This document shows positions 22,638-53,003 of a DNA stretch of 64,000 nucleotides, piece by piece. The notes beneath the pieces were generated by a model. The model ran no database searches. It saw nothing but the letters and a program-made list of their open reading frames with translations, and was not told the DNA's origin. The position numbers and the translations under genes were made by a program. The stretch spans positions 18,661 through 82,660 of the forward strand of contig CAZJFS010000003.1 in NCBI GenBank assembly GCA_964545075.1. The letters run 5' to 3'. Source of the stretch: an uncultured bacterium. Its GTDB lineage: Bacteria > Muiribacteriota > UBA9980. Within the stretch, counting starts at the first letter, position 1. The number at the start of each line of letters is the position of its first letter.

Positions 22638-22653
22638 AGATCACCATTGCCTT

Positions 22654-23819: not shown

Positions 23820-24083
23820 TATAAGCGTTTAAAATAATTCACATTCAAAAAATATCAGGCATTAGTTTGGAATTTTAACACAACTGATGCCAAAAAGCAA
23901 TATATGTTAGAAATCGTGCCTGAATTCATTGACATCCATTTTTAAAAATGATAGCATAATTAAACCATCGTTATACGTGCCGCTATCTCACATGGAATAG
24001 TCCGTTAAAAGCACGAATTGCGTTTAAAACCAATCGTTTTAAGAAAAGCGACGCGAACAACAATATCGGGAGTGTGTTACCAA

Positions 24084-27594: not shown

Positions 27595-28908
27595 TTATTT
27601 CAACGCTTCGGCGTCGATACGGCCGCAAGCAGCGTTAAGCGCCTGTTCAACGGTTTTCGCGCCGCTTAACGCTGCTTCCATTTCCGGGTTTATGAGCGTT
27701 TCAAGCTGCGCGTATTTTAATACTTTCGGGCGAGGCTGCGCCGTTTTCATTTGTTCCATAAAGACCTTGAGTATCGACGCTTCTTCCGTGTCGTCTATCT
27801 TTATTTTATCGTATGCCTTCAAATTGACCGGTATCTGGCGGAGCTTCGAGCCCCATTCAGCCTGAATGTCGGCCGAAGTGAGATGGCGGAGGAATTCATA
27901 GCACGCCTTGAGCTGATCGGGAGTGCGCTTTTTCTTGAAGATGACCATATTCGTTCCGCCGACGTTGGTTGACGTGCCTTTAGGCCCTTCGGGAACGAGC
28001 GATACCGCGAAATTGATCTTCGCGTTTTTGAAGCGTGAAACGTTCCAGGGGCCCATGAGTATCATGGCGTATCTTCCGTTCATGAATCCCGTTTCCGTGT
28101 TCTGGCCGCCTGAAGCCCAGGCGCCGCCTTCAACGGCGTATTTTCTGAAAAGATCTACCTTGAATTGAAGCGCGTCTTTAGCTTCCTGGGAGTTTAAAAG
28201 GCATTTCTGTCCGTCATCGCTCAAAAATTTAGTGCCGTAGGTATTGAAGAACGGGAACGACCACCACAAGGAATTGTCCATTCCGAATCCGAACCTGTCG
28301 GCATCCTTGTTCGTGAGCTTCTTTGCGTATTCAAGAAAATCCGCCCATGTTTTCGGGGCTTTATCGGGATCGAGCCCGGCCTGGCGGAAAAGGTCCTTGT
28401 TGTAAAAAAGGCACGCGCCGTTGGTTTGATCGGGAAAACCGTAGATGCAATTCTTGCCGCTTTTTTCATGTATGATGCAGGAGTCTATAGCCGCCGGAAC
28501 ATATTCGGCGAGTATCTCGTTCGTTCCTATTTTTTTTGCCGCGGCTTCCTCTTCTATGAATTTATTGACGTCTTCCAGTATTTGATTATACGCGAGTTCC
28601 GGCACGAACGTGGTGTCGACGCGGCCTATATCAGGCGGCGAACCGGCTATAAGCGAGGTTCTGTATTTGGATTCCTGGCCCATCCAGGGGATTTGAGCCA
28701 CATGGACGGTGAATCCGTTCTTATTTTCCTTCGACCATTTTTCAGCTATATCGTTAAAAACCTTCATTTCGTCTGGGCCGTATGAGACCCACACCAGTAT
28801 GTCCTTGGCGCCCATGCCGCCAGGCTTGGCGCAGAAAAAAGTTCCGAATATGAAGACGAAGAGAAGCGCACTTATTGCTATTGTCGATATCATGCTATTT
28901 TTAATCAT
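27595..28908 (-). CDS. Carbohydrate ABC transporter substrate-binding protein (family 1 SBP)
   Basis: It has a signal/TM N-terminus and the SBP_bac_1 fold pattern: ILVWVSYGPDE…, many Trp/Tyr residues and LINPE. Confidence 0.75.
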   Translation of the reverse strand: MIKNSMISTIAISALLFVFIFGTFFCAKPGGMGAKDILVWVSYGPDEMKVFNDIAEKWSKENKNGFTVHVAQIPWMGQESKYRTSLIAGSPPDIGRVDTTFVPELAYNQILEDVNKFIEEEAAAKKIGTNEILAEYVPAAIDSCIIHEKSGKNCIYGFPDQTNGACLFYNKDLFRQAGLDPDKAPKTWADFLEYAKKLTNKDADRFGFGMDNSLWWSFPFFNTYGTKFLSDDGQKCLLNSQEAKDALQFKVDLFRKYAVEGGAWASGGQNTETGFMNGRYAMILMGPWNVSRFKNAKINFAVSLVPEGPKGTSTNVGGTNMVIFKKKRTPDQLKACYEFLRHLTSADIQAEWGSKLRQIPVNLKAYDKIKIDDTEEASILKVFMEQMKTAQPRPKVLKYAQLETLINPEMEAALSGAKTVEQALNAACGRIDAEALK

Positions 28909-28923
28909 TTTATCATACCGCCT

Positions 28924-29787
28924 TTATTCTTTTACCGCGCCTTTTGTCATGCCTTCGATAAAGAAATTCTGCGCCACGAGAAATAGCACAGCTATCGGAA
29001 TTATCGAAAAGCACGAAGCCGCCATCATCATTTCCCACTCGGAACCGTGCGGGCCTGAAAAATAAGCGAGTCCGACGGGAAGAGTTAATATAGAGGAGCC
29101 CGGCTTCGTGATGACGAGCTGCCAGATAAAATTCGACCAGTGAAATAAAAACGTGAGAAGCAGAAGCGTCACTATTATGGGCATCGCAAGAGGCACTATT
29201 ATTATCGTGAAGATCTGCCATTCGGAAGCGCCGTCAAGCCGCGCGGCTTCTATGAGCGAATCCGGAATGCTTCTCATGAACTGACGCATCATGAACACGC
29301 CGAAAATATTTGCCAGATGCGGTATTATAAGTCCCTGATAAGTGTCGAACCATCCGAGTTTTATCGTTATTACAAACTGTGGAACGAGATACATCATGCC
29401 CGGGATCATCATGGTCGCGACCAAAAGATAGAAAAGATATTCCTTAAAGATGAATTCTTTTTTAGCGAAAACGTATCCGGCCATGCATGAAAACGCCGTA
29501 GCAAAGATAGCCGCAAGGGACGCCACTATGATGCTGTTGAAGAAATATTTCATGAAGCTGAACTCGGATAATACCTTGCTGAAATTTTCGAACGTATATA
29601 ATTTTTCGCCGGCGTTCGGGAAAAAGTGGAGCTTGAAGGCGGTGCCGGACACCTTGAAGGCGGTCAATATCATCCAAAATAGTGGAAAGAGGACCACGAG
29701 CGCGCCCAGCGTCAGAAATGCGTATAGAATGGCTTTCGTGATCTGTTTATTATATTTGACAAGTGATTCGTTTGCTTTATCCATCAT
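28924..29787 (-). CDS. Carbohydrate ABC transporter permease (MalG/UgpE-like)
   Basis: The EAA-like motif region IEAARLDGASEWQIF is present, with about 6 TM helices. Confidence 0.8.
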   Translation of the reverse strand: MMDKANESLVKYNKQITKAILYAFLTLGALVVLFPLFWMILTAFKVSGTAFKLHFFPNAGEKLYTFENFSKVLSEFSFMKYFFNSIIVASLAAIFATAFSCMAGYVFAKKEFIFKEYLFYLLVATMMIPGMMYLVPQFVITIKLGWFDTYQGLIIPHLANIFGVFMMRQFMRSIPDSLIEAARLDGASEWQIFTIIIVPLAMPIIVTLLLLTFLFHWSNFIWQLVITKPGSSILTLPVGLAYFSGPHGSEWEMMMAASCFSIIPIAVLFLVAQNFFIEGMTKGAVKE

Positions 29788-29854
29788 AAGGTCTGGTCTC
29801 CTCTTAAAATCTCTCGAAATTCGCGTTGGCTACGCGTACGGCAGTTATCCCGCG

Positions 29855-31015
29855 TTAATCTTCAGCGTGAAGGAATTTTTCCTGTACCTTTGAGATGACT
29901 ATCGTAAGGATCAGAAGCGCGTAGGACATCGCGGCGGCGTAACCGTATTCGCTCTGTTCCCATTTCGTGAAAAGGTAATATCCGGTGAGTTTGGTGGCGC
30001 CCAGCGATTTATCGAAGAGAGTGAGAATCGGGCCGCCCTTGGTCATGGCGTAAATTTCAGTGAAAGCGTTCAGCGCTCCTATAATCCCCGTGACCGCCAT
30101 GAAAAATATGATGGGCTTGACGAGAGGAAGCGTTATATAGAAAAATTTCTGGATCTCGTTGCAGCCGTCTATATCGGCCGCTTCGTATATGGCTTCAGAG
30201 ATGTTCTGGATGGCCGCCAGAAAAAGGATCATGCCGAAACCGGCGCCTTTGACTACGAGCGCGAAAACGACAGCCGGCATACATGTGGCGGGAGTTCCCA
30301 GAATTCCGCGGTCCAGAGCGTCTTTTGCGATGTTGGCGAAGCCGCCGAGAATTCCGCCGCCGCCGAAGAGAACTACGAAAACCGTGCCGTAAATAAGTAT
30401 ATCCAGAAGCGTGCCGGCCGTTTCGCCCTTGACGTATTTTTTCATTGAAAAGATCGAATGAATTTTATAGATTCCGAGAAGGATAAGGCCGTAAACTATG
30501 CCTTGAGTGAACATGGTGAACAGCGAAAGGAAAAAATGATTGAAGAAATTACCAAGAAAATTATAGGTGAAGAAGGTGAATGTGTAATTTATCAAAGTGT
30601 CGACGATGCCGCCCTTGCTGTAAATGAGCGTCCAGATGATGCCGATAACGAGCATATCGAGGACGTTCGGAAGGAAGTAGGCCGAGCGGAAAACGTTTTT
30701 AAATGAAATTTTATTGTTTAAAAATATCGCGAGCACGAGCGAAGAGAGAATGCCCATGGGCACGATCAGTACCGCGTAGTATAAAGTCATGAGCACGGCC
30801 CACAAGAACTCGTAATCGGTAAATAAGCGAGTGTAGTTATCCATTCCGACCCACTTGAGAGCGTTCAAAGAATAGCCGGTCCCGGTTTCCTGAAAGCTTA
30901 GAAAGAAAGAGTAAATAACGGGATAAGCAAGGAAGACGAAAAATATGGTTAAGAACGGGGCGAGAAATAAATAGGATATCTTGTTCTCGAGGTTCTTGGA
31001 CGAAGTTTTTGCCAT
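29855..31015 (-). CDS. Carbohydrate ABC transporter permease (MalF/UgpA-like, extended)
   Basis: The EAA motif AIYEAADIDGCNEIQKF is present. The protein is a polytopic permease. Confidence 0.8.
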   Translation of the reverse strand: MAKTSSKNLENKISYLFLAPFLTIFFVFLAYPVIYSFFLSFQETGTGYSLNALKWVGMDNYTRLFTDYEFLWAVLMTLYYAVLIVPMGILSSLVLAIFLNNKISFKNVFRSAYFLPNVLDMLVIGIIWTLIYSKGGIVDTLINYTFTFFTYNFLGNFFNHFFLSLFTMFTQGIVYGLILLGIYKIHSIFSMKKYVKGETAGTLLDILIYGTVFVVLFGGGGILGGFANIAKDALDRGILGTPATCMPAVVFALVVKGAGFGMILFLAAIQNISEAIYEAADIDGCNEIQKFFYITLPLVKPIIFFMAVTGIIGALNAFTEIYAMTKGGPILTLFDKSLGATKLTGYYLFTKWEQSEYGYAAAMSYALLILTIVISKVQEKFLHAED

Positions 31016-31140
31016 AAATCATATGCTTATTCTGGTTCTTGGTTTTATTAGATGGAATGCACCAATTAAAAAGCATATCCCCCTTTCAAAAAAATTATTG
31101 ATATATTAGAAAAAACGAATTCATTATTGTCCAGGCCGTT

Positions 31141-32535
31141 TTATTTGGATGAAATATAAGGGCTTGTTACTTCAGGTATCTCAGTTTTAAGTTTTTCGGC
31201 TTCCGCCGCGGCTTCATTTTTAGTTGCGTATCCGTCGAGTCTTACGCGGTAAACGGTGTCGCCTGACGATGCTTTTCCCGGGATTATAGATGCTTTCATG
31301 CCAAGCTTGACGACCTTTGATTTGAGACTGTCGGCGTTTTTCTGATTTTTATAGGTGCCCAGTTGTATGTAATAACCGCCGGTTTTTCCCTTTGATTTTT
31401 CAGCCGCTTTGGTTGTTTTTGCGGCTTCGGCGTCGGGGACGATCTCATCGTCGGACGGCTCGCTTATTTCGTCAGCTGTTTCGTCAGCGGCTGTGACCTT
31501 GACTTTGGATTCAGGCTTAACCGTTTCTTTTTTCGGCTCTTTTTTAACCGCGGCGGGCTTGGTTTCAGCGGTTTTTTTGACTGGCTGAACCGTTTCTTCC
31601 TCGATTATTTTAGCCGCCGTTTCTTCTTTTTTTTCGATTTTTTCAACGGGTTTGACTTCGGTCGCGTTTTTAGCTTCGACAACTTTTTTTTCGGGTTCTT
31701 TGACTTTTACGGTTTCGATGGGCGCTTCGGCCGGTTTTTTAACTTCAATTTTTATTTCCGGAGATTTAACCGTTTCTTTTTCAGGGGCGTGAGCCGGTTC
31801 GGCCGCTTTCGGTTTCACGGCCGTTACGGGTTTTTCCGGCAAAGGAGTTTCAACTTTTTCAGGTTGAACTGGTTGGCTTATCGTATTTAACACTTTCGAG
31901 TCGGAAGTGGCTACCACTATATCCGCGGGTTTCTTAACGGTTTCGGAAGATTTAGGCATGAAAGCCACTTCGAGGTTCGGATCGGGCGTTATAGTGATCT
32001 TGGCGGCATAATTTTTAAGCTTGGCCGCGTTAAGCATTGATTTGGCATCTTCGTAACTTTTGAAAAGACCTATGTGTACTACGTATTGTTTGCGGTCGGG
32101 CTTTATCATTATCTTTCTGGCGTAAAGATTTTTGTCGGAAAATTCCTTGATGATCTCGTCGGCGCGGCTTTCGTCATAAAATTCGTTTTCAACGCCTGAA
32201 CCGATCTGAACCGTGAAAAATTCGTTTTTGTTGATCGTCATGGAATCGGTCATAACCGAACCGGCGTCTTTGGATATTTTAAGCTCTCCTTCCTCGATGC
32301 GGCTGTCGGCGTTAGCTGAGACTTCCACGTTGCTTGCCGCGCTTCCGGTTATTTTGGTTACGGCGCCTTCCTGCTCGCGGACCTGCTGGCCGTAATATAA
32401 GCCTATCAAAACAACGATTATGACTACTATAATCCATGAGAGGACTATAAGCATCTTTTCATTGGTCGAGGAGACCGCTTTAAAATTGAAGTTTCTGTTC
32501 TGTCTCATTTTTTCTCCGGAAAAATAAATTAGCAA
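31141..32535 (-). CDS. SPOR-domain protein with a long Lys/Glu/Pro/Val-rich linker
   Basis: An N-terminal TM helix is followed by a low-complexity KPxEKxE linker and two SPOR-like domains (…YVVHIGLFKSYEDAKSM…; …YYIQLGTYKNQKNADSL…YRVRLDGYATKNEAAA). The real start may be the Met at 32508. Confidence 0.65.
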   Translation of the reverse strand: MLIYFSGEKMRQNRNFNFKAVSSTNEKMLIVLSWIIVVIIVVLIGLYYGQQVREQEGAVTKITGSAASNVEVSANADSRIEEGELKISKDAGSVMTDSMTINKNEFFTVQIGSGVENEFYDESRADEIIKEFSDKNLYARKIMIKPDRKQYVVHIGLFKSYEDAKSMLNAAKLKNYAAKITITPDPNLEVAFMPKSSETVKKPADIVVATSDSKVLNTISQPVQPEKVETPLPEKPVTAVKPKAAEPAHAPEKETVKSPEIKIEVKKPAEAPIETVKVKEPEKKVVEAKNATEVKPVEKIEKKEETAAKIIEEETVQPVKKTAETKPAAVKKEPKKETVKPESKVKVTAADETADEISEPSDDEIVPDAEAAKTTKAAEKSKGKTGGYYIQLGTYKNQKNADSLKSKVVKLGMKASIIPGKASSGDTVYRVRLDGYATKNEAAAEAEKLKTEIPEVTSPYISSK

Positions 32536-32561
32536 AATGTTACCATTTTTTCGTCAAATAG

Positions 32562-33569
32562 TCAATGAAAAGTGCCATATATTTTTTCGCCGCAGGCGCC
32601 GCAACATCCGCTTTCGGAAAGGCCGCCGATCGTGCTCGAAAAATATTCTCTTTTTATGAGGATTTTCCCGCAGGAAGGGCAGTGAGTGGAGTTTTTAGCA
32701 ATATCGCTGACGTTTCCCAGGTAGACGAATTTAAGTTTACGCATTCCTATCTCGTACGCCATGTTGAGCGTTTTTATAGGCGTCGTCTGAATTTCACATA
32801 AATACGAAGGATGATAACGGGAGAAATGAAGCGGAATGTCGGGTGAAACCGAAGCTACGAAATCGACAAGGCTCGATACGGCCTGGTTCGCGTCGTTAAG
32901 CGTCGGTATCAAAAGGTTGGTTATTTCCACGTGTATTCCGAGCCCCCAGGCGAGCCTGATAGTGTCGGTTACAGCCTCCAGCGATCCGTTTCCGCAGACG
33001 TCGCGGTAAAAATTATCTGAAAAAGCCTTGAGGTCTACGTTCATGGCGTCGATATAAGGCGCAAGCTCACGCAGGGCCGGTTCGGAAATGTCGCCGTTGG
33101 TGACCATGACCGTTTTAAGGCCGTTATCATGAAAGAGCTTAGCGCAATCGTAAACGAATTCATACCATATGGCGGGTTCGTTGTACGTGAAAGCTATACC
33201 GCAGCAATTGGCCGACTGGCGGGCGAGAGAGAGAAGGTAGGCAGGATTGACTTTTGTGAAGTTTGTTTTATGCTGTGAGATTTCGTAATTCTGGCAGAAT
33301 TTGCAGGCGAGATTGCAGTAATTTGTTCCGAGGGAAAGAATAAGGGTTCCGGGCAGAAAATGATACAGCGGTTTTTTTTCCATGGGGTCCATGTTGATGG
33401 CGACCGCGTTTCCATAATTTAGCGTGTAAAGCTCCCCGGCGTCGTTGATCCTTGATTTACAAAACCCGGTTTTTCCGGGTAATGTCACGCACTGTTTGGA
33501 GCAGAGGAGACAGCGGACACGATTTCCGTCCAATTTTTGAAAATGCCGCGCCGGGAATTTTTCATTCAT
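32562..33569 (-). CDS. AmmeMemoRadiSam-system-type radical SAM enzyme (PFL-activase-like)
   Basis: The N-terminal zinc-ribbon-like segment reads RCLLCSKQC…GFC. It continues with MEKKPLYHFLPGTLILSLGTNYCNLACKFCQNYEIS, which contains a CxxxCxxC motif. The start was set at MNEKFP; the ORF track adds a 34-aa N-terminal extension. Confidence 0.65.
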   Translation of the reverse strand: MNEKFPARHFQKLDGNRVRCLLCSKQCVTLPGKTGFCKSRINDAGELYTLNYGNAVAINMDPMEKKPLYHFLPGTLILSLGTNYCNLACKFCQNYEISQHKTNFTKVNPAYLLSLARQSANCCGIAFTYNEPAIWYEFVYDCAKLFHDNGLKTVMVTNGDISEPALRELAPYIDAMNVDLKAFSDNFYRDVCGNGSLEAVTDTIRLAWGLGIHVEITNLLIPTLNDANQAVSSLVDFVASVSPDIPLHFSRYHPSYLCEIQTTPIKTLNMAYEIGMRKLKFVYLGNVSDIAKNSTHCPSCGKILIKREYFSSTIGGLSESGCCGACGEKIYGTFH

Positions 33570-33601
33570 CGTTCTACCTCTATTTTCTATGATGTCAATA
33601 A

Positions 33602-34594
33602 TTAGTCGGGGATCTTGACGACGATCGCGCCTTTCGGACATCTGCCGATACAAAGGCCGCAACCTATGCATTTTTCTTCGATCACTTTAAATTCCTTGTC
33701 GGATGCTGTTATCGCATGTGCCGGGCATATTTCGGAGCATATCCCGCAGAGATTGCATTTATCGGCGTTTATTAAAACAAGGTTTTCGTTTATGCGCGTA
33801 TTTTCAATGACCCCGGTCGGGCATTTGATCGAGCATATTCCGCAGTTCGTGCAGCGGTCGGCCATTATTTCGGGTGCTCCGGCTCCGGAATCAAAGGCGT
33901 TCTGCGGACAGGCCTTGACGCAGACGAGGCATCTTATGCAACCGGTTCTGCATATTTTATGGACCACCATTCCGTCGTCGCGGGTCTGGCATTTAACGTA
34001 GGTTTTGAGCTTTCTATCGCCGAGTTTTAAAACGTTGAATGGGCAGGAAATAACGCATTTTCCGCAGCCGATACATTTCAGTTCGTTTATTCTTGGCAGA
34101 AAGTCATCTATGAGCTCTATCGCCCCGACCGGGCATGCCATCTGGCAGTCGCCGAATCCGGCGCAGCCATAGGAACATTCGCGGTTGCCGTTCCACAGAA
34201 GATTCACTCCGGCGCAGTTTTTGACGCCATAGTATTTGAATTTCTCGTTGCAGCCGGTGTGCGTTGCGGCGCACCTGGTCCGGGCGACAGGGGCCGTTTC
34301 GTCTAACGAGCCGGTATTGTACCCCCAGATGCGCGCCGAGGCTTTTTTCAATTCGGATGATGAATGAGCGCAAAGATATATGACCTCCGGAGCATGCGCA
34401 GCCGTCGCGGCGAATTCCTTGCAGTTTTTAAAGCCGCATTTTTCGCAGTCGTTAAGCGGAAGAAGTTCCAGAATAAGCGAGGCGCGGTCGTCCCCGTTGA
34501 TGAAAGCGCGCCGGTTCGCGCCGGCGTATTCTGAGATAAAACCAGTTATGAAGTTTAAAACGAGAAATGACGCTAATGTAAAAACAGAACTCAT
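33602..34594 (-). CDS. rnfB: RnfB-like electron transport complex subunit B with multiple 4Fe-4S ferredoxin domains
   Basis: It has an N-terminal TM helix. The RnfB-type FeS domain reads LPLNDCEKCGFKNCKEFA. Four ferredoxin-type CxxCxxCxxxCP motifs follow. Confidence 0.7.
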   Translation of the reverse strand: MSSVFTLASFLVLNFITGFISEYAGANRRAFINGDDRASLILELLPLNDCEKCGFKNCKEFAATAAHAPEVIYLCAHSSSELKKASARIWGYNTGSLDETAPVARTRCAATHTGCNEKFKYYGVKNCAGVNLLWNGNRECSYGCAGFGDCQMACPVGAIELIDDFLPRINELKCIGCGKCVISCPFNVLKLGDRKLKTYVKCQTRDDGMVVHKICRTGCIRCLVCVKACPQNAFDSGAGAPEIMADRCTNCGICSIKCPTGVIENTRINENLVLINADKCNLCGICSEICPAHAITASDKEFKVIEEKCIGCGLCIGRCPKGAIVVKIPD

Positions 34595-34597
34595 AAT

Positions 34598-34816
34598 TTA
34601 AAGTAACGTTATCTCTTCCACCCGGATTCCGTCTTCACGAATTATCCGAATCCACGATGCCTGTGATAGTTTTTCATACATGTCGAAACGTTCGCACGCG
34701 TGTTTTATTGCCTGAGCCTCATTGACCGCGTTTATCATGAACTCGACCGTATGTTCTTTTTTTGTGCCGCTGTCAAAATATGGGATAGTAACTTTGTAGC
34801 TTTTATTTTTTTTCAA
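34598..34816 (-). CDS. Small (72 aa) hypothetical protein inserted between rnfA and rnfB
   Basis: The ORF is tightly packed, starting 2 bp after the rnfA stop and ending 4 bp before the rnfB start. No family is recognised. Confidence 0.4.
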   Translation of the reverse strand: MKKNKSYKVTIPYFDSGTKKEHTVEFMINAVNEAQAIKHACERFDMYEKLSQASWIRIIREDGIRVEEITLL

Positions 34817-34817
34817 T

Positions 34818-35354
34818 TTATACCACCTTGAAAAAAAGAGAAAGCGAGACGGATAAAAAACCGAGCGTTATAATCTCGCAGCAAAAAATATTGAAATCGC
34901 TTATGTTTCCGGCTTCAATAGCTATTCTTTTTCTGATAAAGAAAAAAATCGCGGCTACCGCTAAAAATCCTGCCGCCGCGCCAAAGGAATTTTGAACCGC
35001 CGCTCCGGCGGTTTTAGAAAGTTTTAAAATATAGAAGGGGACCAGGCACGAGAGATAGTTAAGCGAATCGTATATGCCGTTGTCGGCATGGCCAAGAAGC
35101 CAATAAATTGATTGATTAAAAAAGAAAGCGGCCGAGACGGAAAAAATGAATATATATATATCGTTTTTCGAAAATTCGGGGAGGAAGTTTGCGATAAAAG
35201 CGAATAGCGAGGTTACCGTTAACATAGTGAACGAATTAACGGCGGCGGTCATGAAATAATCGCGGCCGCTGTTTTTGCTTGAAAAAAGGACAAGCTCGGC
35301 GCCGAAACCCAAAAAAAGAATTATGTTAAAGTATATCATGAATGTCGTTATCAT
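34818..35354 (-). CDS. rnfA: RnfA/RnfE-family membrane subunit (RnfA position)
   Basis: It has about 6 TM helices. The C-terminus AAIFFFIRKRIAIEAGNISD…IITLGFLSVSL matches the RnfA pattern …IRERLA…ITAGLMSLAF. Confidence 0.6.
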   Translation of the reverse strand: MITTFMIYFNIILFLGFGAELVLFSSKNSGRDYFMTAAVNSFTMLTVTSLFAFIANFLPEFSKNDIYIFIFSVSAAFFFNQSIYWLLGHADNGIYDSLNYLSCLVPFYILKLSKTAGAAVQNSFGAAAGFLAVAAIFFFIRKRIAIEAGNISDFNIFCCEIITLGFLSVSLSLFFKVV

Positions 35355-35411
35355 TTTAACCCTTTATCATTTCAGTTGTGAATTATATTATATCATCGGA
35401 TGCTTAATTAA

Positions 35412-35945
35412 TCAAATTAATTTTTCCAGAATCTTGCTTGTTCCGAGCGCTAAGAGACCGGCCAGGATTATCACCGGACCTGGATAATAAAGAGCGTTCA
35501 CGCCGGAAAGGGCCGGTAAAGCTTTTAATAATTCTATGCTCAGACCCGTAATCATAAAAATGCTGACGGAAACGGAGGCCATTATGGAGAAGTGTTTGAA
35601 ATATTCGGAAAATTTGGAGGCCGTTCTGGAATACCCGCCGAGATAAATGCCAGCCATTGAAAATGCGGTTAAAAAAATATAAATTTCAGAGTTCCATCCT
35701 ATGTAATAATTTTTAGACAAAAAGAAATTGTAGAGAGCGAGGTTGAATGGAAGCGAAACGAAAACTGCCGCGGGATATTTAAGCTTGATGTCATAATTTT
35801 TTAAGGGATATAAAAATGCGGCGGTGACGAACATGGCCGAGACGGAAAAAATGGAGAAAAAAATCGCGGAAGTCAGGCAGTCGACGGCCAGAAGAAATGG
35901 TAATATGCCGGTTATAGCTATTTTCACGTTTTTAAAATCGTTCAA
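35412..35945 (-). CDS. rnfE: RnfA/RnfE-family membrane subunit (RnfE position)
   Basis: It has 6 TM helices. GILPFLLAVDCLTSA matches LGLCPLLAVT in RnfE/NqrD. The gene overlaps rnfG by 4 bp. Confidence 0.6.
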   Translation of the reverse strand: MNDFKNVKIAITGILPFLLAVDCLTSAIFFSIFSVSAMFVTAAFLYPLKNYDIKLKYPAAVFVSLPFNLALYNFFLSKNYYIGWNSEIYIFLTAFSMAGIYLGGYSRTASKFSEYFKHFSIMASVSVSIFMITGLSIELLKALPALSGVNALYYPGPVIILAGLLALGTSKILEKLI

Positions 35946-36922
35946 TTCACATCCTCCTTTTTATTATTTCCTTCCATTTTGTCCGATGCGCTTGAATTGA
36001 TGAAGTCCTTGATAAGGGAAAGAATCGGTTGGATATTGCTTATAAAATCGAACTTGTCCGAATACATATTGTTTTTTCTTTCAGCGGCGGTTATCAGCAA
36101 TATATTTTCGGGTGAAATGTCGCTTATGAGAAGGCCGTTGAATCGGTCGAGAAAGCCGGAGCCGATGTTTCTGAAAAAGGTCTTTTTCAGAGGAAAAACC
36201 ATTATCCGGCATATCTGGCCGCCGGTTTTCATCGTGAAGGCGACCCTTATCTGCTCGAATTTGCCGGGAAGAAAAGTTTCGCAATAAAGTCCGGCCTGGG
36301 TTCCGTTAATTTTTATGTCGGCTATATTCGCGCAGATCTCGTCTTTTCTTATTTCGCGCGGCGCTGAAAGTTCCATTTTATGTTTTACCGCATTATAGAT
36401 CGCCTTGTAAATGTTGGCCGCCGAGGCGCCGTTATCGTCCGCAAGTTTTATTCCACGATTTTCCCGGATCTTTGTGAGTATCCTGTTTGAAATAAGTTCC
36501 ATGTCGTCGACTGAGTCGGATGATTTGAGGATGAGTCCGCGCGAGGTAAAGCTCATTGTGCGGTCCTGCTTTATGAAAAATTTTATCCAGGGAGCGGTTT
36601 CCTCGGGAAATTTATAATCTTTAAAGGCTTCTTCAAAATCGGCGCTGTCTTTATGCAGATCGAGCCCCGCGTTATAAGAGTCCAGCTTTTCGGGCGCGAC
36701 GCCGGCCTGCCAGGAATAGATTCCGGGCGGAAGGTCGTCGTTTTTGATATGGTTTCCAAGAAACGAGCGGAAAATTTCTTCGGGCGACAGCTTGAGTCCT
36801 TTGTTTTGCGATGTTTTCAGAACGTTTGAGAACGGGCGGCTTGCGATATCGGCGGCCATTATTGAAAAAGCGATGGAAATAACGAATATTAAAGAGGCGG
36901 CCAGGCTTTTACGCGCGTTCAT
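35942..36922 (-). CDS. rnfG: Membrane-anchored protein in the RnfG position (divergent; no obvious S/TGAT FMN-attachment motif)
   Basis: It has an N-terminal TM helix and sits between rnfD and rnfE. No canonical FMN_bind SGAT(S/T) motif was found by eye. Confidence 0.35.
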   Translation of the reverse strand: MNARKSLAASLIFVISIAFSIMAADIASRPFSNVLKTSQNKGLKLSPEEIFRSFLGNHIKNDDLPPGIYSWQAGVAPEKLDSYNAGLDLHKDSADFEEAFKDYKFPEETAPWIKFFIKQDRTMSFTSRGLILKSSDSVDDMELISNRILTKIRENRGIKLADDNGASAANIYKAIYNAVKHKMELSAPREIRKDEICANIADIKINGTQAGLYCETFLPGKFEQIRVAFTMKTGGQICRIMVFPLKKTFFRNIGSGFLDRFNGLLISDISPENILLITAAERKNNMYSDKFDFISNIQPILSLIKDFINSSASDKMEGNNKKEDVN

Positions 36923-36923
36923 A

Positions 36924-37910
36924 TCAGGACCTCCTGCGGCTGGTTATTTCGTCAAGCGCGGGTACCAGGGAAGACGATATTAAAAGCGCGTAATTGGTCA
37001 TATCCATACCATTGCCGTAAACACCGAGCATGTAAGCCGTGGAACCGAAAAATGCTCCGTATATGTAGCGTGAAAAACGTCTTTCAGGAGAAGAATAATA
37101 ATCTGTCAGCACAAAACATGAATAAAACAGGAACAGGCTTCCGAATGCGTGATAAACGAACTCGGAGACTACGCCCCAGAAACCCCTGGAAAAAGTGAAC
37201 ACGCAAACTGCGAGGAAAAGTCCGGAGAAGGAGCCGACGATCGAAACCGCGTCGACTGACTTTTTAAGGTAAAGCGAGAACGCTACGATGAGTATAACGA
37301 TTATCGAAGTTTCGCAATAATGTCCGGGATACCAGCCCGCCAGAAGCTTTATAAGATTTTGAAGCCCCGCTGACGTGGCGTCTGAAACGGCCGTGGCGTT
37401 CTTGAATGTAAAGCAGTTAGAATATTCGTCGATGGGGAACGGGAAAAACCATTGTTTTGACATGAAGGGCCGTGGATAATTGAAATAAAGCATTTTGTTG
37501 CCGAAGGAAATCGTCAGAAAGGCTATCGAGACTGAAACGGGGTTGAATATTCTGAAAATATTTCCCGAAGGCGGGAAGAAAGTCAGAAGATAAACGATAA
37601 TAGCCCCTAAAATAGCTATGTATAAAGGAACTCCGGCTGGAAGCAGGAGCGCGTAAAGGAACGCGTAATAATAATTTTCATATCCGATATCGGCGAAACG
37701 CCTTCCGCGTTTTTTCAGTTCGAAATAGGTCGGAAGAAGAACGAATAAAATGGCGGTGAAAATGGTCAGCATTGCCATAATACCATAGTTGTAAACCGAA
37801 ATAAGGATGACCGGAAGAAGCGCGAGCGCCCTCGTTAAAAAGATCGAACTTTTAGACAGAGGCGAGTGGATGTATGGGTGTATTGAAACGGCAAGCTCCA
37901 TGTCGGCCAT
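36924..37910 (-). CDS. rnfD: RnfD/NqrB-family polytopic membrane subunit
   Basis: GHYCETSIIVILIVAFSLYL matches the GxLGETSALALLLGGLYL pattern. TDYYSSP…GAFFGSTAYMLGVYG matches ATDPVTSP…GALIGLL. Confidence 0.7.
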   Translation of the reverse strand: MADMELAVSIHPYIHSPLSKSSIFLTRALALLPVILISVYNYGIMAMLTIFTAILFVLLPTYFELKKRGRRFADIGYENYYYAFLYALLLPAGVPLYIAILGAIIVYLLTFFPPSGNIFRIFNPVSVSIAFLTISFGNKMLYFNYPRPFMSKQWFFPFPIDEYSNCFTFKNATAVSDATSAGLQNLIKLLAGWYPGHYCETSIIVILIVAFSLYLKKSVDAVSIVGSFSGLFLAVCVFTFSRGFWGVVSEFVYHAFGSLFLFYSCFVLTDYYSSPERRFSRYIYGAFFGSTAYMLGVYGNGMDMTNYALLISSSLVPALDEITSRRRS

Positions 37911-39226
37911 CAGTTTTCACGCCCCTTTATATTGGACTGAAGGATCATCTTTTTCGAAAGTATTATCGAGTGCGTAATATTTATCCGCGAGGGGCAGATA
38001 TAAGAGCAGACGCCGCATTCTATGCATGAATAAATTCCGGCTGCCGCGGTTTCGGAATGTTTTCCGAGGCGGCTAAGACGGTTTATAAATGCAGGATTTA
38101 AGGAGGCGGGGCAATGATCGATGCATTTTTTACAGCGCATGCATGTCTCCTCGTGCGGCGTAGAAAGGCGTTCGGTTGGAAGAAGCGTCAGGGCGCTGGT
38201 AGTTTTTATAACCGGGACGTTCGTCGTATATTGAGAGAAACCGGACATGAGGCCGTCTATCACCATGGAATTAACTGTTCCGCAAAGACCGCCGCATTGT
38301 TCGATTATTTCGGAGATCATTGTTCCGATGCGAACCTTTACGTTAGATGGTTTTGCGATGGCATATCCCGAGACCGTGAGATAGGTATCTATCTGGGGTT
38401 TGTTAAACTTTAGCGCTTCATATAAAAAATAAGCGACGGAGGCGTCGAGGACGAAGCAGCCGGCATCGGAGAGTTTCCCGTGCCTTATGTCCGCCTTTAA
38501 TATGCAGGATGCGAGTATCGCTTCGTTTCCCTGCGGGTATTTATCGGTCACTCTAATTATTTTAATGTTTTTATAAGCTGATATAGCGCTTTCAAGCGTC
38601 GCTATAAGTTTTTTCATGTGGTAAGGCACGGCCAGAAAAATGAACTTCGGTGAGAGCGCCGAACTCATGAATAATATTCCGCTTAAAATTTCATCGGTAA
38701 AATTGCGCGCCATAGTTTCGACGTTGTGCACATAGGGTTCGTTCTGGACAAAATTTACTATAAGGTAGTAAATCTGCTTGTTTTTAATTTCCGAAAGTTT
38801 GTACCAGAGAGGATAATTGGAAGAAGCGCGATCGACTATGGAGCATTGCCTGGATTTTTCTATTATTTCATCCAGTGAAAAAGCGGTCCGGTCAGAAACT
38901 TTTATTTCGCCGTTAGGCGTGTCCTGACCGTCGGAAGCTATAACCACGGCCGGTGAATATTTGTAGTGAGGATGCGTGAACTCGGAAACGCTTTCAACGG
39001 TACCTGAAAGCGGCGCATGGACATCGCAGGAAATAGCACCCATTCCTCTGGCAATTAGATCAAAAGTTTTTACCCGATCGCCTGGTTTAACGCATGCAAC
39101 AGCGGGCGAACCGTTATGCTGGCTTAGAAGCACGCATACCTTAGAGGGTATCTTCAGGGAAACGAGGGGTTTTTCCTCCGTGAGCTCATTGTTGAGCGGT
39201 AATTTTATTCCTCCGTGAAAATCCAT
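37910..39226 (-). CDS. rnfC: RnfC-like subunit (N-terminal RnfC domain, 51K-like core, 2x 4Fe-4S) with a degenerate Gly-rich loop
   Basis: The N-terminus reads MDFHGGIKLP…AISCDVHAPLSGTV. The segment LIVNFVQNEPYV matches IINGAECEPYL. The 4Fe-4S motifs are CMRCKKCIDHCP and CIECGVCSYICP. The expected GxGGAGFPTxxKL loop is replaced by RASSNYPLWYKL. Confidence 0.7.
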   Translation of the reverse strand: MDFHGGIKLPLNNELTEEKPLVSLKIPSKVCVLLSQHNGSPAVACVKPGDRVKTFDLIARGMGAISCDVHAPLSGTVESVSEFTHPHYKYSPAVVIASDGQDTPNGEIKVSDRTAFSLDEIIEKSRQCSIVDRASSNYPLWYKLSEIKNKQIYYLIVNFVQNEPYVHNVETMARNFTDEILSGILFMSSALSPKFIFLAVPYHMKKLIATLESAISAYKNIKIIRVTDKYPQGNEAILASCILKADIRHGKLSDAGCFVLDASVAYFLYEALKFNKPQIDTYLTVSGYAIAKPSNVKVRIGTMISEIIEQCGGLCGTVNSMVIDGLMSGFSQYTTNVPVIKTTSALTLLPTERLSTPHEETCMRCKKCIDHCPASLNPAFINRLSRLGKHSETAAAGIYSCIECGVCSYICPSRINITHSIILSKKMILQSNIKGREN

Positions 39227-39344
39227 TTCATATCCTATATAAAAAATATTAATTGCATTCTACCACAAATAAGCTTAAAAATTCAATAAGAGTTTAATTG
39301 AAATTGCATTTTTTTTTTGATATAATAAACCGCGGAGATGATTT

Positions 39345-40460
39345 ATGAATAAATTTACTCATCCTAAAAACGAGTCGGAAGAAGCTGCCATGATGAATGC
39401 TGAAGAATTCAAGCTGGACTGCTATTTTTTGAGTGAAAACAACCTTATGTGGCTTAAAGGCGATCTTTCGAGCCTTGAAGAACAATTCATCGAAATCATA
39501 AATAACGTCCCCGCGTATAAGCCTACAATATTCGAGTTGTGTAATATATATCAGGCGCGGGGCGAGCGTGACAAGCTTCGACAGATGATAGATTATGCGT
39601 TAAAACGGTTTCCGGACGACGTGATGTTTCTTGTAATGGACGCCCTATGGCGTTTTGGCGCCAACGAGGTCGCCGCCGCGCTCGCGATACTTGAAAAACT
39701 GGCGGTTAAAGTGAACGCGCCGATCGTGATGAAGACCCTCGGCGATATCTATATGGCTCAGAAAATGATAATTCCGGCTATCGAAGCTTATAAAAAATGC
39801 GTTGAAAAATACGATGGATTTCCGGAAGTACATCTGGAACTTGTCAGGCTCTATTATCAAGCCGCCGATTTTTTAAACGTCATACTTGAATTGAAGCATA
39901 TCCCCGAAGATCAGAAGACCCTCGAACTTAAAAAGATCGAAGGCGTCTGCGATTATTACCGTGAAGACTACAAAGCCGCGCTGGCTGTATTCACGGACAT
40001 TTTAAAACACCATCCGAACGATATTTTTTCGCTGCTTTACGCGGGTGATATATGCCTGAGGTTCGAGAAAAATTACAAAGCCGAATTTTACTGGGAGAGC
40101 GCTTTGAAACTTACGCCTGAAACGCTGGAGGACCGCGCCTGTCTTGCGAAAATCCATCTTTTTACGAACGATTACGAACAGGCTGTAAAACTCGCCGATA
40201 TAAACATACGGCAGGTGCCGGATCATTATGTTTCGCTGTTCATTCTCGGGCTTATCGCGGTCTGCGAGGATAAATTTCACTCGGCGGCGGTTAACTGGAA
40301 TATCGTTTACACGAAAAAACCTGAAATATTTGATTTCGAATTCGAACTTATAAAAAAGAGCCTCAAGGACAACAAGATAAAAGAGTTTATTTATAAGGTT
40401 AACGAGCCTGAATATAAAGACATGTGCGAGCGCATAAAGGTGAGATGTGATATAAAATGA
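39345..40460 (+). CDS. TPR-repeat protein
   Basis: Multiple TPR-like helical pairs are present. Confidence 0.6.
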   Translation: MNKFTHPKNESEEAAMMNAEEFKLDCYFLSENNLMWLKGDLSSLEEQFIEIINNVPAYKPTIFELCNIYQARGERDKLRQMIDYALKRFPDDVMFLVMDALWRFGANEVAAALAILEKLAVKVNAPIVMKTLGDIYMAQKMIIPAIEAYKKCVEKYDGFPEVHLELVRLYYQAADFLNVILELKHIPEDQKTLELKKIEGVCDYYREDYKAALAVFTDILKHHPNDIFSLLYAGDICLRFEKNYKAEFYWESALKLTPETLEDRACLAKIHLFTNDYEQAVKLADINIRQVPDHYVSLFILGLIAVCEDKFHSAAVNWNIVYTKKPEIFDFEFELIKKSLKDNKIKEFIYKVNEPEYKDMCERIKVRCDIK

Positions 40461-41290
40461 ACACAGCCGTCGTTCAAATGAACATAAATATAAGCCGGCC
40501 TGAAGATAATCTCGCGGCCGGCCTGGCGTCGATACGCGAAGCCTGCGATTCGGGCGCCCAAATTATCGTGATGCCCGAAATGTGGGTCACCGGGCTTCAT
40601 CCTGATATCGTAAACTCCGCCTTCGTGGAGAAGACTCCCGAGATCATCGAAAAAATATGCTCTATCGCCAGGGAATATGGCTGCATAATAAACGCCGGTT
40701 CGTTTGCCTTTCGCGCCGAAGCCGAAAATTCTGATGACAGGCGCGTATTGAACAGGGCTTATGTGATCGACGGTGAAGGCCGCGTTTGCGGAACTTACGA
40801 TAAGATCCAGGTTTTTACGAAAAATAATGAGGACGCATATTCGAAACCCGGTTCTTTGGTTTCGGTTATCGACGCCGGCGGAATAAAAATAGCTCCATTT
40901 ATCTGTTTTGACATAAGATTTCCTGAACTTTTCAGGGTGGCGGCTCTGAACGGAGCCGAACTGATAACCGTTTCATCCCAGTTCCCGGCGTCCCGCATAA
41001 ATCACTGGAATGCGATACTTCCGGCCAGGGCCGTTGAAAACCAGTGCTATGTTCTGGCGTCTAACGTTTGCGGCAATGACGGCCTGCTTGCGCTGGGCGG
41101 AAATTCCATGGCTGTTTCGTATGACGGCGAAGTGCTCAATAATTGCCTGGCCGGTGAGGGAATCGGTTTCGCTGATATCGATCTGGAACGCATGCGCGCG
41201 TATCGCTCGAAATTTCCTTTTATTTCCGAAGCCGCGCTCGGGGGCAGGCTCGCGCCTTTAATAAGCGGCGTGCGGCCGTCCGGCGTTTGA
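40457..41290 (+). CDS. Carbon-nitrogen hydrolase (nitrilase superfamily) protein
   Basis: The segment VVQMNI…IVMPEMW contains the catalytic Glu. The motif ICFDIRFPE contains the catalytic Cys. The start overlaps the TPR gene. Confidence 0.75.
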   Translation: MNTAVVQMNINISRPEDNLAAGLASIREACDSGAQIIVMPEMWVTGLHPDIVNSAFVEKTPEIIEKICSIAREYGCIINAGSFAFRAEAENSDDRRVLNRAYVIDGEGRVCGTYDKIQVFTKNNEDAYSKPGSLVSVIDAGGIKIAPFICFDIRFPELFRVAALNGAELITVSSQFPASRINHWNAILPARAVENQCYVLASNVCGNDGLLALGGNSMAVSYDGEVLNNCLAGEGIGFADIDLERMRAYRSKFPFISEAALGGRLAPLISGVRPSGV

Positions 41291-44912: not shown

Positions 44913-45028
44913 TTTAAAATTACCTCACAAATTCTGGTTTAATAAAGCTAGCAACGTACTCTATACTTTTTAAAATAAAAGATCAGGTTACAATCTTTTA
45001 TTTTGATTATTTTAACATAAAACTGAAT

Positions 45029-45346
45029 TTATTTCCATATAATATTTATTTTATCGCCGGGCATGAATTCGCCGGACATTACTTCCTGGCGGATAGAAGA
45101 GTTATCGTAAACCGTGTATTTATGATGCCCGCTTGGAAGCGATATCCAGTAACTGGTTTCGGCGAATATCTGCGTTTCGAGCTTTCCGTCTATATAAAGA
45201 AGGACGGTTTCGCTTCCGAGATTAGTAAAGGCCGAACTTGTCGCGGCGTCGCAGTCCTTCTCATCGTTGTCAAGAATACATCCTGAATCAATGAAAAGAA
45301 CAAGAAATAAAAATAGTATCAGTAACAGTTCCGTTTTTCTTAGCAT
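45029..45346 (-). CDS. Small hypothetical lipoprotein (105 aa)
   Basis: The signal carries a DSGC lipobox. It lies between the two amidase-like paralogs. Confidence 0.45.
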   Translation of the reverse strand: MLRKTELLLILFLFLVLFIDSGCILDNDEKDCDAATSSAFTNLGSETVLLYIDGKLETQIFAETSYWISLPSGHHKYTVYDNSSIRQEVMSGEFMPGDKINIIWK

Positions 45347-45368
45347 GCCTTCACTTTATGACATTAAA

Positions 45369-49827: not shown

Positions 49828-49840
49828 CGTAAGCATATAT

Positions 49841-51367: not shown

Positions 51368-51373
51368 GCCGAT

Positions 51374-52870: not shown

Positions 52871-53003
52871 TATCTTATTCGCCGGCCTTTTCGCGCGCGG
52901 CAGGATTTTTTCAGGCCGTTTATAAAAAGGTCCTTCATAGTTTAATGACTGATCGCTTTAACGGTAACAAGTATTTTAAGTTAATGGATATGGGGTGATT
53001 GGA

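Follow-up and report, generated by a model that had tools for sequence, protein, structure and literature searches.

An Rnf-derived gene block of uncultured bacteria that lacks the cofactor sites of the canonical transmembrane electron path and adjoins a radical SAM gene

The minus strand of the window (the whole 64,000-nucleotide stretch of DNA analysed), which comes from the genome of an uncultured member of the Wallbacteria, carries, at positions 32562-39226, eight tightly packed genes that include homologues of all six Rnf subunits, and in which the canonical transmembrane electron path is dismantled. The C-like subunit has no FMN/NADH site, the D- and G-like subunits have no threonine for covalent FMN, and the A/E pair has no ligands for a [2Fe-2S] cluster, while the cytoplasmic Fe-S chains of B (a polyferredoxin) and C (two [4Fe-4S] clusters) are intact. 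Because these sites are missing, the canonical Rnf reaction should not be possible, and we infer from the sequence that the complex has ceased to act as a ferredoxin:NAD+ ion pump. Since selection has been kept despite these losses, and a small protein (X) and a radical SAM (rSAM) enzyme are constant neighbours, the altered complex probably performs a new job. A preliminary description of this DNA had proposed an Rnf-derived complex unfit for NADH:ferredoxin exchange, which agrees with the lost cofactor sites and the purifying selection on the genes; it had also spoken of a membrane Fe-S module, a term that is not entirely accurate, as the remaining clusters are confined to two peripheral subunits, B and C.

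The genes are ordered C-D-G-E-A-X-B-rSAM and are followed by a gene for a SPOR-domain protein:

37910-39226, minus strand, RnfC-like subunit (438 aa)
36924-37910, minus strand, RnfD-like subunit (328 aa)
35942-36922, minus strand, RnfG-like subunit, in the G position (326 aa)
35412-35945, minus strand, RnfE-like membrane subunit, in the E position (177 aa, TTG start)
34818-35354, minus strand, RnfA-like membrane subunit, in the A position (178 aa)
34598-34816, minus strand, protein X (72 aa, TTG start)
33602-34594, minus strand, RnfB-like polyferredoxin (330 aa)
32562-33569, minus strand, AmmeMemoRadiSam-family radical SAM enzyme (335 aa, from Met35 of a 369-aa ORF)
31141-32508, minus strand, SPOR-domain membrane protein (about 455 aa from MRQNRNFNF; PF05036 SPOR)

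The 72-aa ORF lies between rnfA and rnfB exactly as first described, and the order C-D-G-E-A-B had been read correctly, but the 4-bp overlaps reported for it had not: the junctions are overlaps of 1-4 bp or gaps of 1-3 bp, with 57 bp between E and A. The rSAM gene does follow rnfB, at a distance of 32 nt instead of the 33 bp given earlier, if Met35 of the long ORF, where its orthologues start, is taken as the first residue. That the rnf set is complete was also borne out, although this required structural and profile evidence, since the G, E and A genes had no Pfam, NCBIfam or PDB sequence matches. Rnf-like folds were predicted with confidence, and the A-like protein matched an RnfA profile (HHalign, 67 sequences; probability 83%, E = 9e-6, 171 columns), with mismatched controls at no more than 1.4% probability.

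The altered cofactor sites, together with CNLACKFC of the rSAM enzyme, are located as follows:

38795-38833, minus strand, RnfC-like: DRASSNYPLWYKL, replacing the FMN/NADH loop (PDB and clade alignments)
38732-38755, minus strand, RnfC-like: NFVQNEPY for NGAECEPY
38240-38257, minus strand, RnfC-like: DGLMSG for GGPMMG
35892-35912, minus strand, RnfE-like: G-I-L-P in place of G-M-C-P
35637-35654, minus strand, RnfE-like: A-G-I-Y-L-G in place of N-C-I-I-L-G
35292-35312, minus strand, RnfA-like: first ligand Cys replaced by Gly, LGFGAEL
33294-33317, minus strand, rSAM: CNLACKFC

The C-like protein is recognisably an RnfC (TIGR01945, 336.6 bits against a cutoff of 246), with the N-terminal barrel-sandwich and SLBB domains retained. 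Its alignments with RnfC chains in the PDB (E = 1e-58 to 1e-65) run through the loop, and IVDRASSNYPLWYKL (residues 130-144) stands column for column opposite IVGMGGATFPTHVKL of the solved RnfC of Clostridium tetanomorphum, Acetobacterium woodii and Azotobacter vinelandii. The three motifs of the FMN/NAD(H) pocket (GxGGAxFPT, NGAECEPY and GGPMMG) are thus absent, with DRASSNYPL, NFVQNEPY and DGLMSG in their places. An alignment of 10 clade members with canonical RnfC was used for these motifs; the altered Gly-rich loop of the preliminary description is confirmed, its loss is common to all 11 close relatives, and the pocket is likewise lost in the C-like protein of lineage 2. The motifs persist in canonical RnfC of numerous distant phyla, for which identity is equally 30-37%. 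The automated NCBI annotation of the C-like gene is RnfC.

The Fe-S motifs of C and B had been described as intact, and alignment supports this. In C, the eight cysteines for two [4Fe-4S] clusters (362-373, 401-412) are invariant. The B-like protein (TIGR01944, 85.6 bits against a cutoff of 68.7; NF005503, 190 bits; matches to Pfam Fer4 families) has an N-terminal transmembrane anchor, a C-x2-C-x4-C-x16-C domain (PF04060) and six ferredoxin-type Cys motifs, all of which align with those of canonical long RnfB.

The D-like protein matches PF03116 (134 bits) and reaches only 81 bits against TIGR01946 (cutoff 207). Its covalent-FMN site, placed by PDB alignments, by MAFFT with 13 canonical RnfD and by a motif scan, reads IDEYSNCFTF (residues 160-169, 37404-37433) opposite the canonical D-A/G-x-S/T-S/T/G-A-T-P-L. 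The flavinylated threonine (D-[AG]-x-[ST]-[STG]-A-T) is missing, and [ST][GSTA]A[ST] is absent from 10 orthologues; the earlier claim of a missing threonine is therefore upheld, but DATSAGLQ, which had been taken for the site, lies elsewhere and is not conserved. Two residues, N123 (in FNPV) and D270 (in LTDYYSSP), are retained and align with N123 and D249 of A. woodii RnfD, which contact riboflavin (PMC11889175, Fig. 2d legend). Besides its N-terminal transmembrane helix, the G-like protein has an FMN_bind-like domain, from which the ETPGLG loop is absent, and an additional domain about 140 aa long. As already noticed in the preliminary description, it carries no S/TGAT flavinylation motif, and none is found at the homologous place in 11 orthologues. 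Proper alignment, proposed there as the check on the Gly-rich loop and the FMN threonines, did not recover the motifs.

A fourth loss, absent from that description, concerns the intramembrane [2Fe-2S] cluster. All four Cys ligands (two in RnfA, two in RnfE) are substituted in all three lineages in which the block occurs: in A by Gly and by a residue that is not conserved, and in E by Leu/Val/Met/Ile and by Gly/Ala. A Glu two residues past the first-ligand Gly of A is kept in all three lineages, and Asp22 of E is invariant, and C158 of A conserved, within Wallbacteria. The pair retains the ion-translocating fold of Rnf, Nqr and Mtr, and since acidic residues are also conserved near the former cluster site, it might still bind or conduct a cation, and so might couple or gate a reaction by an ion gradient. 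One of the two other lineages retains the flavin motifs of D and G. This points to a stepwise history, and suggests that loss began with the NADH site and the A/E cluster and reached the D and G flavin sites later, in Wallbacteria.

Protein X is soluble and contains the conserved motifs PYFDSGTKKEH and SWVRIIR, with an invariant D-S/T-G-T. It belongs to no known family, with no significant Pfam or PDB match; only 25 clusters were found among 5.8 billion proteins, and its gene always lies between those for A and B. The rSAM enzyme is of the AmmeMemoRadiSam type, as first identified, with TIGR04337 scores of 310 bits in the window, 307 in lineage 2 (locus L105) and 288 in lineage 3 (locus L107) against a cutoff of 220. 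Enzymes of this family normally partner AMMECR1 and Memo homologues. The absence of these partners had been noted, and holds for the 64-kb window (a Pfam scan of its ~50 ORFs) and for the called genes within about 10 kb on either side of related loci (L007-L013 and L105-L110).

The block C-D-G-E-A-X-B-rSAM, continued by the SPOR gene and genes for ABC permeases, also occurs in two other, sequence-divergent uncultured lineages, and its order is the same in every locus long enough. Adjacency of rSAM and rnfB in relatives, another check proposed at the outset, was seen in every locus reaching that far (13 loci, three lineages), with overlaps between the two genes in L105 (4 bp) and L107 (8 bp). 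Across lineages, identity is about 50% for X and 44-49% for rSAM, and 25-33% or undetectable for the Rnf-like subunits; within the block, only the two permeases (63-68% in lineage 3, 51% over the available fragment in lineage 2) surpass X and rSAM in conservation. The SPOR protein, which may be part of the module, follows the rSAM gene in all three lineages, and its N-terminal part has orthologues in L105 (29% identical over 173 aa) and L107. The eight genes show dN/dS values of 0.04-0.18, indicating purifying selection, with C the most constrained (0.04) and X at 0.047. In more than 15 loci no reading frame is disrupted, and the altered motifs of C are retained in its clade at 51-100% identity.

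The explanation that we favour, tentatively, is that the complex is a membrane-anchored Fe-S redox partner of the rSAM enzyme. Reduced ferredoxin would feed the clusters of B and/or C, these would supply the low-potential electron with which the [4Fe-4S] cluster of rSAM cleaves SAM, and X would be either an adaptor or the substrate protein. Such electron delivery is suggested by the gene linkage and the surviving cofactors: the B and rSAM genes overlap in two lineages, X and rSAM are better conserved than any Rnf-like subunit, the order of the block is constant while its upstream flanks vary, and 80 canonical rnf loci (1.2 Mb) contain neither X nor a TIGR04337-type rSAM. However, a soluble ferredoxin or flavodoxin is normally a sufficient reductant for rSAM enzymes, which leaves unexplained why seven membrane-complex genes are kept. 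With the A/E cluster gone, there is also no known route from the clusters of B to those of C, and the usual AMMECR1 and Memo partners may sit elsewhere in the genome. Finally, adjacency is weaker evidence than it appears, because the conserved block also holds the SPOR protein and two ABC permeases, and part of the linkage could reflect a neighbourhood inherited in related organisms and not function.

A more far-reaching version, which we regard as possible but doubtful, is that the block represents a third Rnf/Nqr branch without NAD(H), flavins or intramembrane cluster, dedicated to the AmmeMemoRadiSam enzyme and X. Such a complex might draw on the ion gradient through the retained A/E module so as to gate or drive low-potential reduction of the rSAM cluster, or it might instead perform an rSAM-dependent modification at the cell envelope or division site, the latter being proposed because the SPOR neighbour is constant.

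The direction of dependence may also be reversed, rSAM being a maturase whose substrate is X or a component of the complex. In place of the lost flavins and cluster, the enzyme would introduce a radical, a cross-link or a novel cofactor, comparable to ApbE and NqrM for canonical Rnf/Nqr. The enzyme lies in a branch resembling pyruvate formate-lyase (PFL) activase, whose members act on protein substrates: its next-best NCBIfam matches are glycyl-radical activases, and its only relative of solved structure, a weak match, is PFL activase (PFL-AE). Moreover, X is small, very conserved, with its invariant motif, and encoded just upstream, and dedicated maturation factors are needed by Rnf/Nqr complexes (PMC12174285). 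We nevertheless consider this unlikely, as neither X nor any of the subunits showed, on inspection by eye, a motif of the glycyl-radical type (RVxG[FY]), and no modification site is predicted. Similarly improbable is an ion channel, transporter or envelope-associated machine, independent of redox state or sensing it, built on the A/E/D fold with B and C as Fe-S sensors, in which the closeness of rSAM, SPOR and ABC genes would mark a conserved cell-envelope neighbourhood and not a shared reaction. Against it stand the retention of every Fe-S cysteine of B and of the most constrained subunit C, the overlap of rSAM with rnfB in two lineages and the strong conservation of X and rSAM.

An ordinary ferredoxin:NAD+ Rnf, its motifs drifted in a deep-branching phylum and its flavins bound non-covalently, would account for the canonical gene order and subunit set, for an RnfC above its NCBIfam subfamily cutoff and labelled as such by NCBI, and for the retained riboflavin-contact positions of RnfD. 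We consider it very unlikely. All three Gly-rich/acidic pocket motifs of C are replaced, even though RnfC of distant phyla keep them at equal identity, and in the G domain both the ETPGLG loop and the threonine are gone. Gly, Leu or Ala in place of the four A/E cysteines cannot hold a [2Fe-2S] cluster, which is central to Na+ pumping in canonical Rnf (PMC12174285, PMC11889175) and is required for both activity and Na+ pumping in A. woodii (PMC11889175). As for a decaying, non-functional rnf remnant, four cofactor sites are indeed gone and sequence searches fail to recognise the E- and A-like subunits, but this reading is effectively refuted by the intact frames, the low dN/dS, the clade-specific and conserved replacement motifs, the confidently predicted Rnf-like folds and the retention of the block in three lineages.

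Rnf and Nqr are regarded as a single conserved machine, defined by a transmembrane electron path from [2Fe-2S] through two covalent FMNs to riboflavin. A version without that path, under selection and tied to an rSAM enzyme, would indicate that the scaffold can be reused for different chemistry, Nqr being an earlier example. Compared with the canonical cofactor set (PMC12174285, PMC11889175) and the solved complexes of C. tetanomorphum (7ZC6), A. vinelandii (8AHX) and A. woodii (9ERI), the block resembles Rnf in its six subunits and Clostridial gene order, in the RnfC_N, SLBB and 2x[4Fe-4S] domains of C, in the long, membrane-anchored polyferredoxin B, in the PF03116 fold of D and the predicted RnfG and RnfE folds of G and E, and in the match of A to the RnfA profile. 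In contrast to Rnf, the FMN/NADH, flavinylated Thr and [2Fe-2S] sites are missing, G has its extra domain, and the operon includes X and rSAM. Because pipelines label the C-like gene RnfC, metabolic reconstructions would wrongly assign ferredoxin:NAD+ energy conservation to Wallbacteria and their relatives.

Na+-NQR (NqrA-F) offers a precedent: the modules through which electrons enter and leave were exchanged around an otherwise preserved membrane core, and NqrA, homologous to RnfC, has lost its redox cofactors (PMC12174285). NQR, however, retains the D/E [2Fe-2S] cluster, both covalent FMNs and riboflavin, with NqrF in place of RnfB, whereas here B and the Fe-S clusters of C are kept and the membrane and periplasmic cofactors are lost. 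Nor is the block an NQR itself: it has no NqrF-like gene, and the C-like protein scores at most 43 bits with NqrA models (cutoff 450). The likeness to MtrC/D/E is structural only, Mtr being a different complex driven by methyl transfer, and the block contains no Mtr-type partners. The rSAM enzymes of all three lineages belong with the AmmeMemoRadiSam system by score, but their constant neighbours are the Rnf-like genes, X and the SPOR protein and not AMMECR1 and Memo. The block offers a concrete, testable partner set for a family of uncharacterised function, and, if the third-branch reading were true, would give the first physiological handle on it.

The block consists of eight head-to-tail ORFs on the minus strand (32562-39226 of the window), carried by a MAG of an uncultured Candidatus Wallbacteria from anaerobic-digester-type metagenomes:

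37910-39226, minus strand, C-like subunit, 438 aa
36924-37910, minus strand, D-like subunit, 328 aa
35942-36922, minus strand, G-position protein (G'), 326 aa
35412-35945, minus strand, E-position protein (E'), 177 aa
34818-35354, minus strand, A-position protein (A'), 178 aa
34598-34816, minus strand, small protein X, 72 aa
33602-34594, minus strand, B-like subunit, 330 aa
32562-33569, minus strand, AmmeMemoRadiSam-family (TIGR04337) radical SAM enzyme (rSAM), 335 aa from Met35 of a 369-aa ORF

The limits of the last gene were set at 32562-33569 because every orthologue starts at Met35 of the ORF. With this start, rSAM does directly follow rnfB, as the preliminary description had it, but at 32 nt from the rnfB stop instead of 33 bp. 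The 4-bp overlaps noted there do not apply throughout: the other junctions are overlaps of 1-4 bp or gaps of 1-3 bp, except for a 57-bp gap between the E and A genes. A promoter-like TTGAAT-18-TAGAAT lies upstream of the C-like gene, no convincing terminator was found within the eight-gene block, and no Rfam RNA elements were detected in window 30500-40500.

Subunit models, profiles and structural matches indicate that all six Rnf subunits are present in canonical order, the membrane and periplasmic ones being extremely diverged. With the NCBIfam rnfC subfamily model, the C-like protein scores 336.6 bits, above the cutoff of 246, and it matches the three solved RnfC chains (E 1e-58 to 1e-65). 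The B-like protein exceeds the TIGR01944 cutoff and is similar to the long RnfB of clostridia. The D-like protein matches PF03116 but reaches only 81 bits with the rnfD model (cutoff 207), and for G', E', A' and X the searches of Pfam, NCBIfam and PDB sequences came up empty even at E=10. Reference profiles comprised 67-73 canonical subunits from 80 rnf loci, among the matches listed in a contig scan with a mixed RnfC alignment, these matches being canonical rnf loci only, with no Wallbacteria loci among them. In HHalign comparisons, A' matched the RnfA profile (probability 83%, E 9e-6, 171 columns) and the C-terminal part of G' matched the RnfG profile (probability 55%, E 1.2e-4), while E' gave no match to RnfE; mismatched subunit pairs, run as controls, gave at most 1.4% probability. 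The best structural matches of E', obtained with a predicted model from a shallow alignment, were RnfE 7zc6_E (11.3), RnfA 8ahx_A (11.2) and NqrE (10.8), and further ones included, among others, MtrD, MtrC and MtrE. BLASTP between the E-like and A-like proteins gave no paralogy signal.

Canonical Rnf carries Fe-S clusters in B, two [4Fe-4S] clusters plus FMN/NAD(H) in C, a [2Fe-2S] cluster ligated by two Cys from each of A and E, an FMN covalently attached to one Thr in G and another to one Thr in D, and riboflavin in D (PMC12174285, PMC11889175). In the C-like protein, the Gly-rich loop is altered as first proposed, IVDRASSNYPLWYKL aligning to IVG(M/L)GGA(T/I)FP(T/A)(H/A)VKL of all three solved RnfC, and the other pocket motifs are also replaced (NGAECEPY by NFVQNEPY, GGPMMG by DGLMSG). 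The proposed loss of the FMN-Thr of RnfD was confirmed, with a Thr motif at the flavinylation position in 0/10 orthologues, but the site had been misplaced: IDEYSNCFTF aligns to D-A/G-x-S/T-S/T/G-A-T-P-L, and DATSAGLQ was rejected, as it lies 7 residues past the aligned site and is not conserved. In A. woodii RnfD, N123 and D249 are hydrogen-bonded to riboflavin (PMC11889175, Fig. 2d legend); the D-like protein keeps the residues at the aligned positions, so that it may still hold a non-covalent riboflavin next to C. G' is devoid of an FMN-attachment motif, as had been reported, with no S/TGAT in 11 orthologues, and the ETPGLG loop is also absent. A further loss had escaped the first reading: all four Cys ligands of the A/E [2Fe-2S] cluster are replaced (in E', G-M-C-P by G-I-L-P and N-C-I-I-L-G by A-G-I-Y-L-G; in A', G-I-C-P by G-F-G-A, the second position not being conserved). 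The Fe-S motifs of the two cytoplasmic subunits are intact, as originally described, the eight Fe-S cysteines of C being invariant and every Cys motif of B retained. The surviving redox centres are thus the cytoplasmic Fe-S chains of B and C, and perhaps a riboflavin in D.

The distribution of this module is narrow. An exhaustive search of 1.84 billion representatives with the G' profile retrieved only 10 proteins, a search of 5.8 billion proteins yielded 25 clusters of X, which also occurs at 10 loci in JGI metagenome contigs, and all named members are Candidatus Wallbacteria. P0160 (1128 aa), a weak match to the G' profile, is RnfG-like at its N-terminus; about nine FMN_bind-like repeats come next in tandem, all carrying a [GS]GAT[YVI]TS flavinylation motif of their own, and the protein looks like a poly-flavinylated extracytoplasmic one. 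Three distant relatives of G', 368-383 aa long, also possess the extra N-terminal domain but keep S/TGAT. The contigs that encode them represent a second lineage (L105, L106 and L110; GC 55-73%), with genes ordered C-D-G-178 aa-177 aa-X and then B, rSAM and the SPOR protein wherever the contig is long enough. Its C has likewise lost the whole FMN/NADH pocket, with no Complex1_51K match, and the Cys ligands of A and E are absent, but its G still matches rnfG (E 2.8e-13) and keeps S/TGAT in 3/3 contigs, and its D has T-x-A-T-P-L in L105 and L106, not in L110. A third lineage (L107-L109, from hydrothermal-vent metagenomes; GC 38%) presents X-B-rSAM, two small ORFs, and then SPOR. The simplest reading is a stepwise loss, in which the common ancestor of the module would already have been without the NADH site and without the A/E cluster, the D and G flavin sites disappearing later, in Wallbacteria.

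Whether rSAM stays next to rnfB in relatives had been put forward as a check, and it lies directly after rnfB in 13/13 loci reaching that far. Its scores against TIGR04337 (310, 307 and 288 bits, cutoff 220) place it in this family in each of the three lineages, and neither an AMMECR1 nor a Memo domain occurs among the approximately 50 ORFs of the window or in the annotated flanks of related loci, in agreement with the initial claim that these partners are missing. X (~50% identity) and rSAM (44-49%) are better conserved across lineages than any Rnf-like subunit (B 31-33%; C, D and G 24-28%; E and A undetectable by BLAST). Among the matches listed, 80 canonical rnf loci (1.2 Mb) contain neither X nor a TIGR04337-type enzyme. 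The lone rSAM match beside a canonical rnfC was discarded as unrelated, being NrdG next to NrdD. That locus (L014:1101-4643), where NrdD and its activase NrdG precede the rnf genes, is the canonical operon most similar to the window C among the matches listed, and its RnfG (288 aa) has an insert and keeps SGAT.

Beyond rSAM, the conserved block also takes in a SPOR protein and a pair of ABC permeases. For the permeases, identity amounts to 63-68% in lineage 3; in lineage 2, where a fragment is available, it is 51% over that fragment. Since these genes are conserved in the same block, the three lineages may be closer kin than their Rnf-like identities suggest, in which case adjacency alone weighs less, and we downgraded it as strong independent evidence. 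Better evidence for an operon is provided by the start/stop overlaps (rSAM and rnfB overlap by 4 bp in L105 and 8 bp in L107) together with the differing upstream flanks, those of lineage 2 being unrelated to the genes upstream of the window block.

The ABC permeases (window 28924-31015 and 27595-28908, both minus strand; L107:3545-5305; L105:14480-14752) are far better conserved across lineages than the Rnf-like genes; the 386-aa one contains a large insert and matches BPD_transp_1 only faintly. In the SPOR-domain membrane protein (window 31141-32508, minus strand), a constant neighbour of rSAM in all three lineages, the cytoplasmic N-terminus (MRQNRNFNF...) is conserved, and there is a long linker rich in Lys, Pro and Glu. 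Two large Amidase_3-like genes (window 43170-47090, minus strand; 573-580 aa) lie a few kb upstream of the block, with similar genes near the block in L008 and L011, and along with SPOR they lend the region a cell-wall or division flavour. After five tandem paralogous B12-binding radical SAM genes (window 48307-56017, plus strand; 506, 508, 498, 500 and 507 aa) comes a 402-aa ORF without a Pfam match (window 56014-57222), and the ensemble has the appearance of a cassette for biosynthesis or modification. In a Wallbacteria relative, the rnf-like block has three radical SAM genes in a row a few kb upstream (L012:2762-6070), and these genomes appear rich in such enzymes. The window further encodes a LutC/LutB/LutA-like lactate-utilisation set (20713-23373, minus strand; LUD, LUD plus 4Fe-4S, and CCG domains) and a 312-aa bacterial protein with multiple ankyrin repeats (24018-24956, plus strand).

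The constant partners of the complex are X and rSAM. The best supported reading, which we infer tentatively and hold at somewhat less than an even chance, is that the complex is a membrane-anchored Fe-S partner that would give the rSAM cluster low-potential electrons, with X as a possible adaptor or substrate. In this reading, the A/E module might still bind a cation: it keeps the Rnf/Nqr/Mtr fold in a predicted model from a shallow alignment, A' has a Glu two residues after the lost Cys that is kept in all three lineages, and an Asp in TM1 of E' is invariant within Wallbacteria. In an unlikely alternative, rSAM would mature the complex or X. We give similarly low credence to an ion or envelope machine with Fe-S sensing, whose neighbours would be merely inherited.

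Eleven protein clusters that are 51-100% identical to the window C form a discrete clade with the altered C motifs in common, and the next-best matches are canonical RnfC with the motifs retained, at no more than 37% identity; a conventional Rnf with drifted motifs, despite the fit of C to the rnfC model, is highly improbable. With respect to an 89%-identical relative, dN/dS is 0.04 for C, 0.07 for D, 0.18 for G, 0.12 for E, 0.18 for A, 0.05 for X, 0.11 for B and 0.12 for rSAM, and reading frames are intact in all loci examined, which makes a decaying remnant scarcely conceivable. Selection still acts on the Wallbacteria version, so the function shared by the lineages cannot require electrons to cross the membrane.

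Neither a cofactor-less Rnf nor an Rnf-radical SAM module was found described in the searchable literature, nor was anything found there on Wallbacteria and Rnf, and AmmeMemoRadiSam was mentioned only incidentally. Among known systems, the block works most like a stripped Rnf, but it departs from the Rnf ferredoxin:NAD+ oxidoreductase in four defining cofactor tests. The A/E fold is shared with MtrCDE, which, however, belong to a Na+-translocating methyltransferase complex and not to a redox pump. In evolutionary terms, NQR offers the nearest precedent: its NqrA, a homologue of RnfC, has shed its cofactors, and the input module has been exchanged (PMC12174285).
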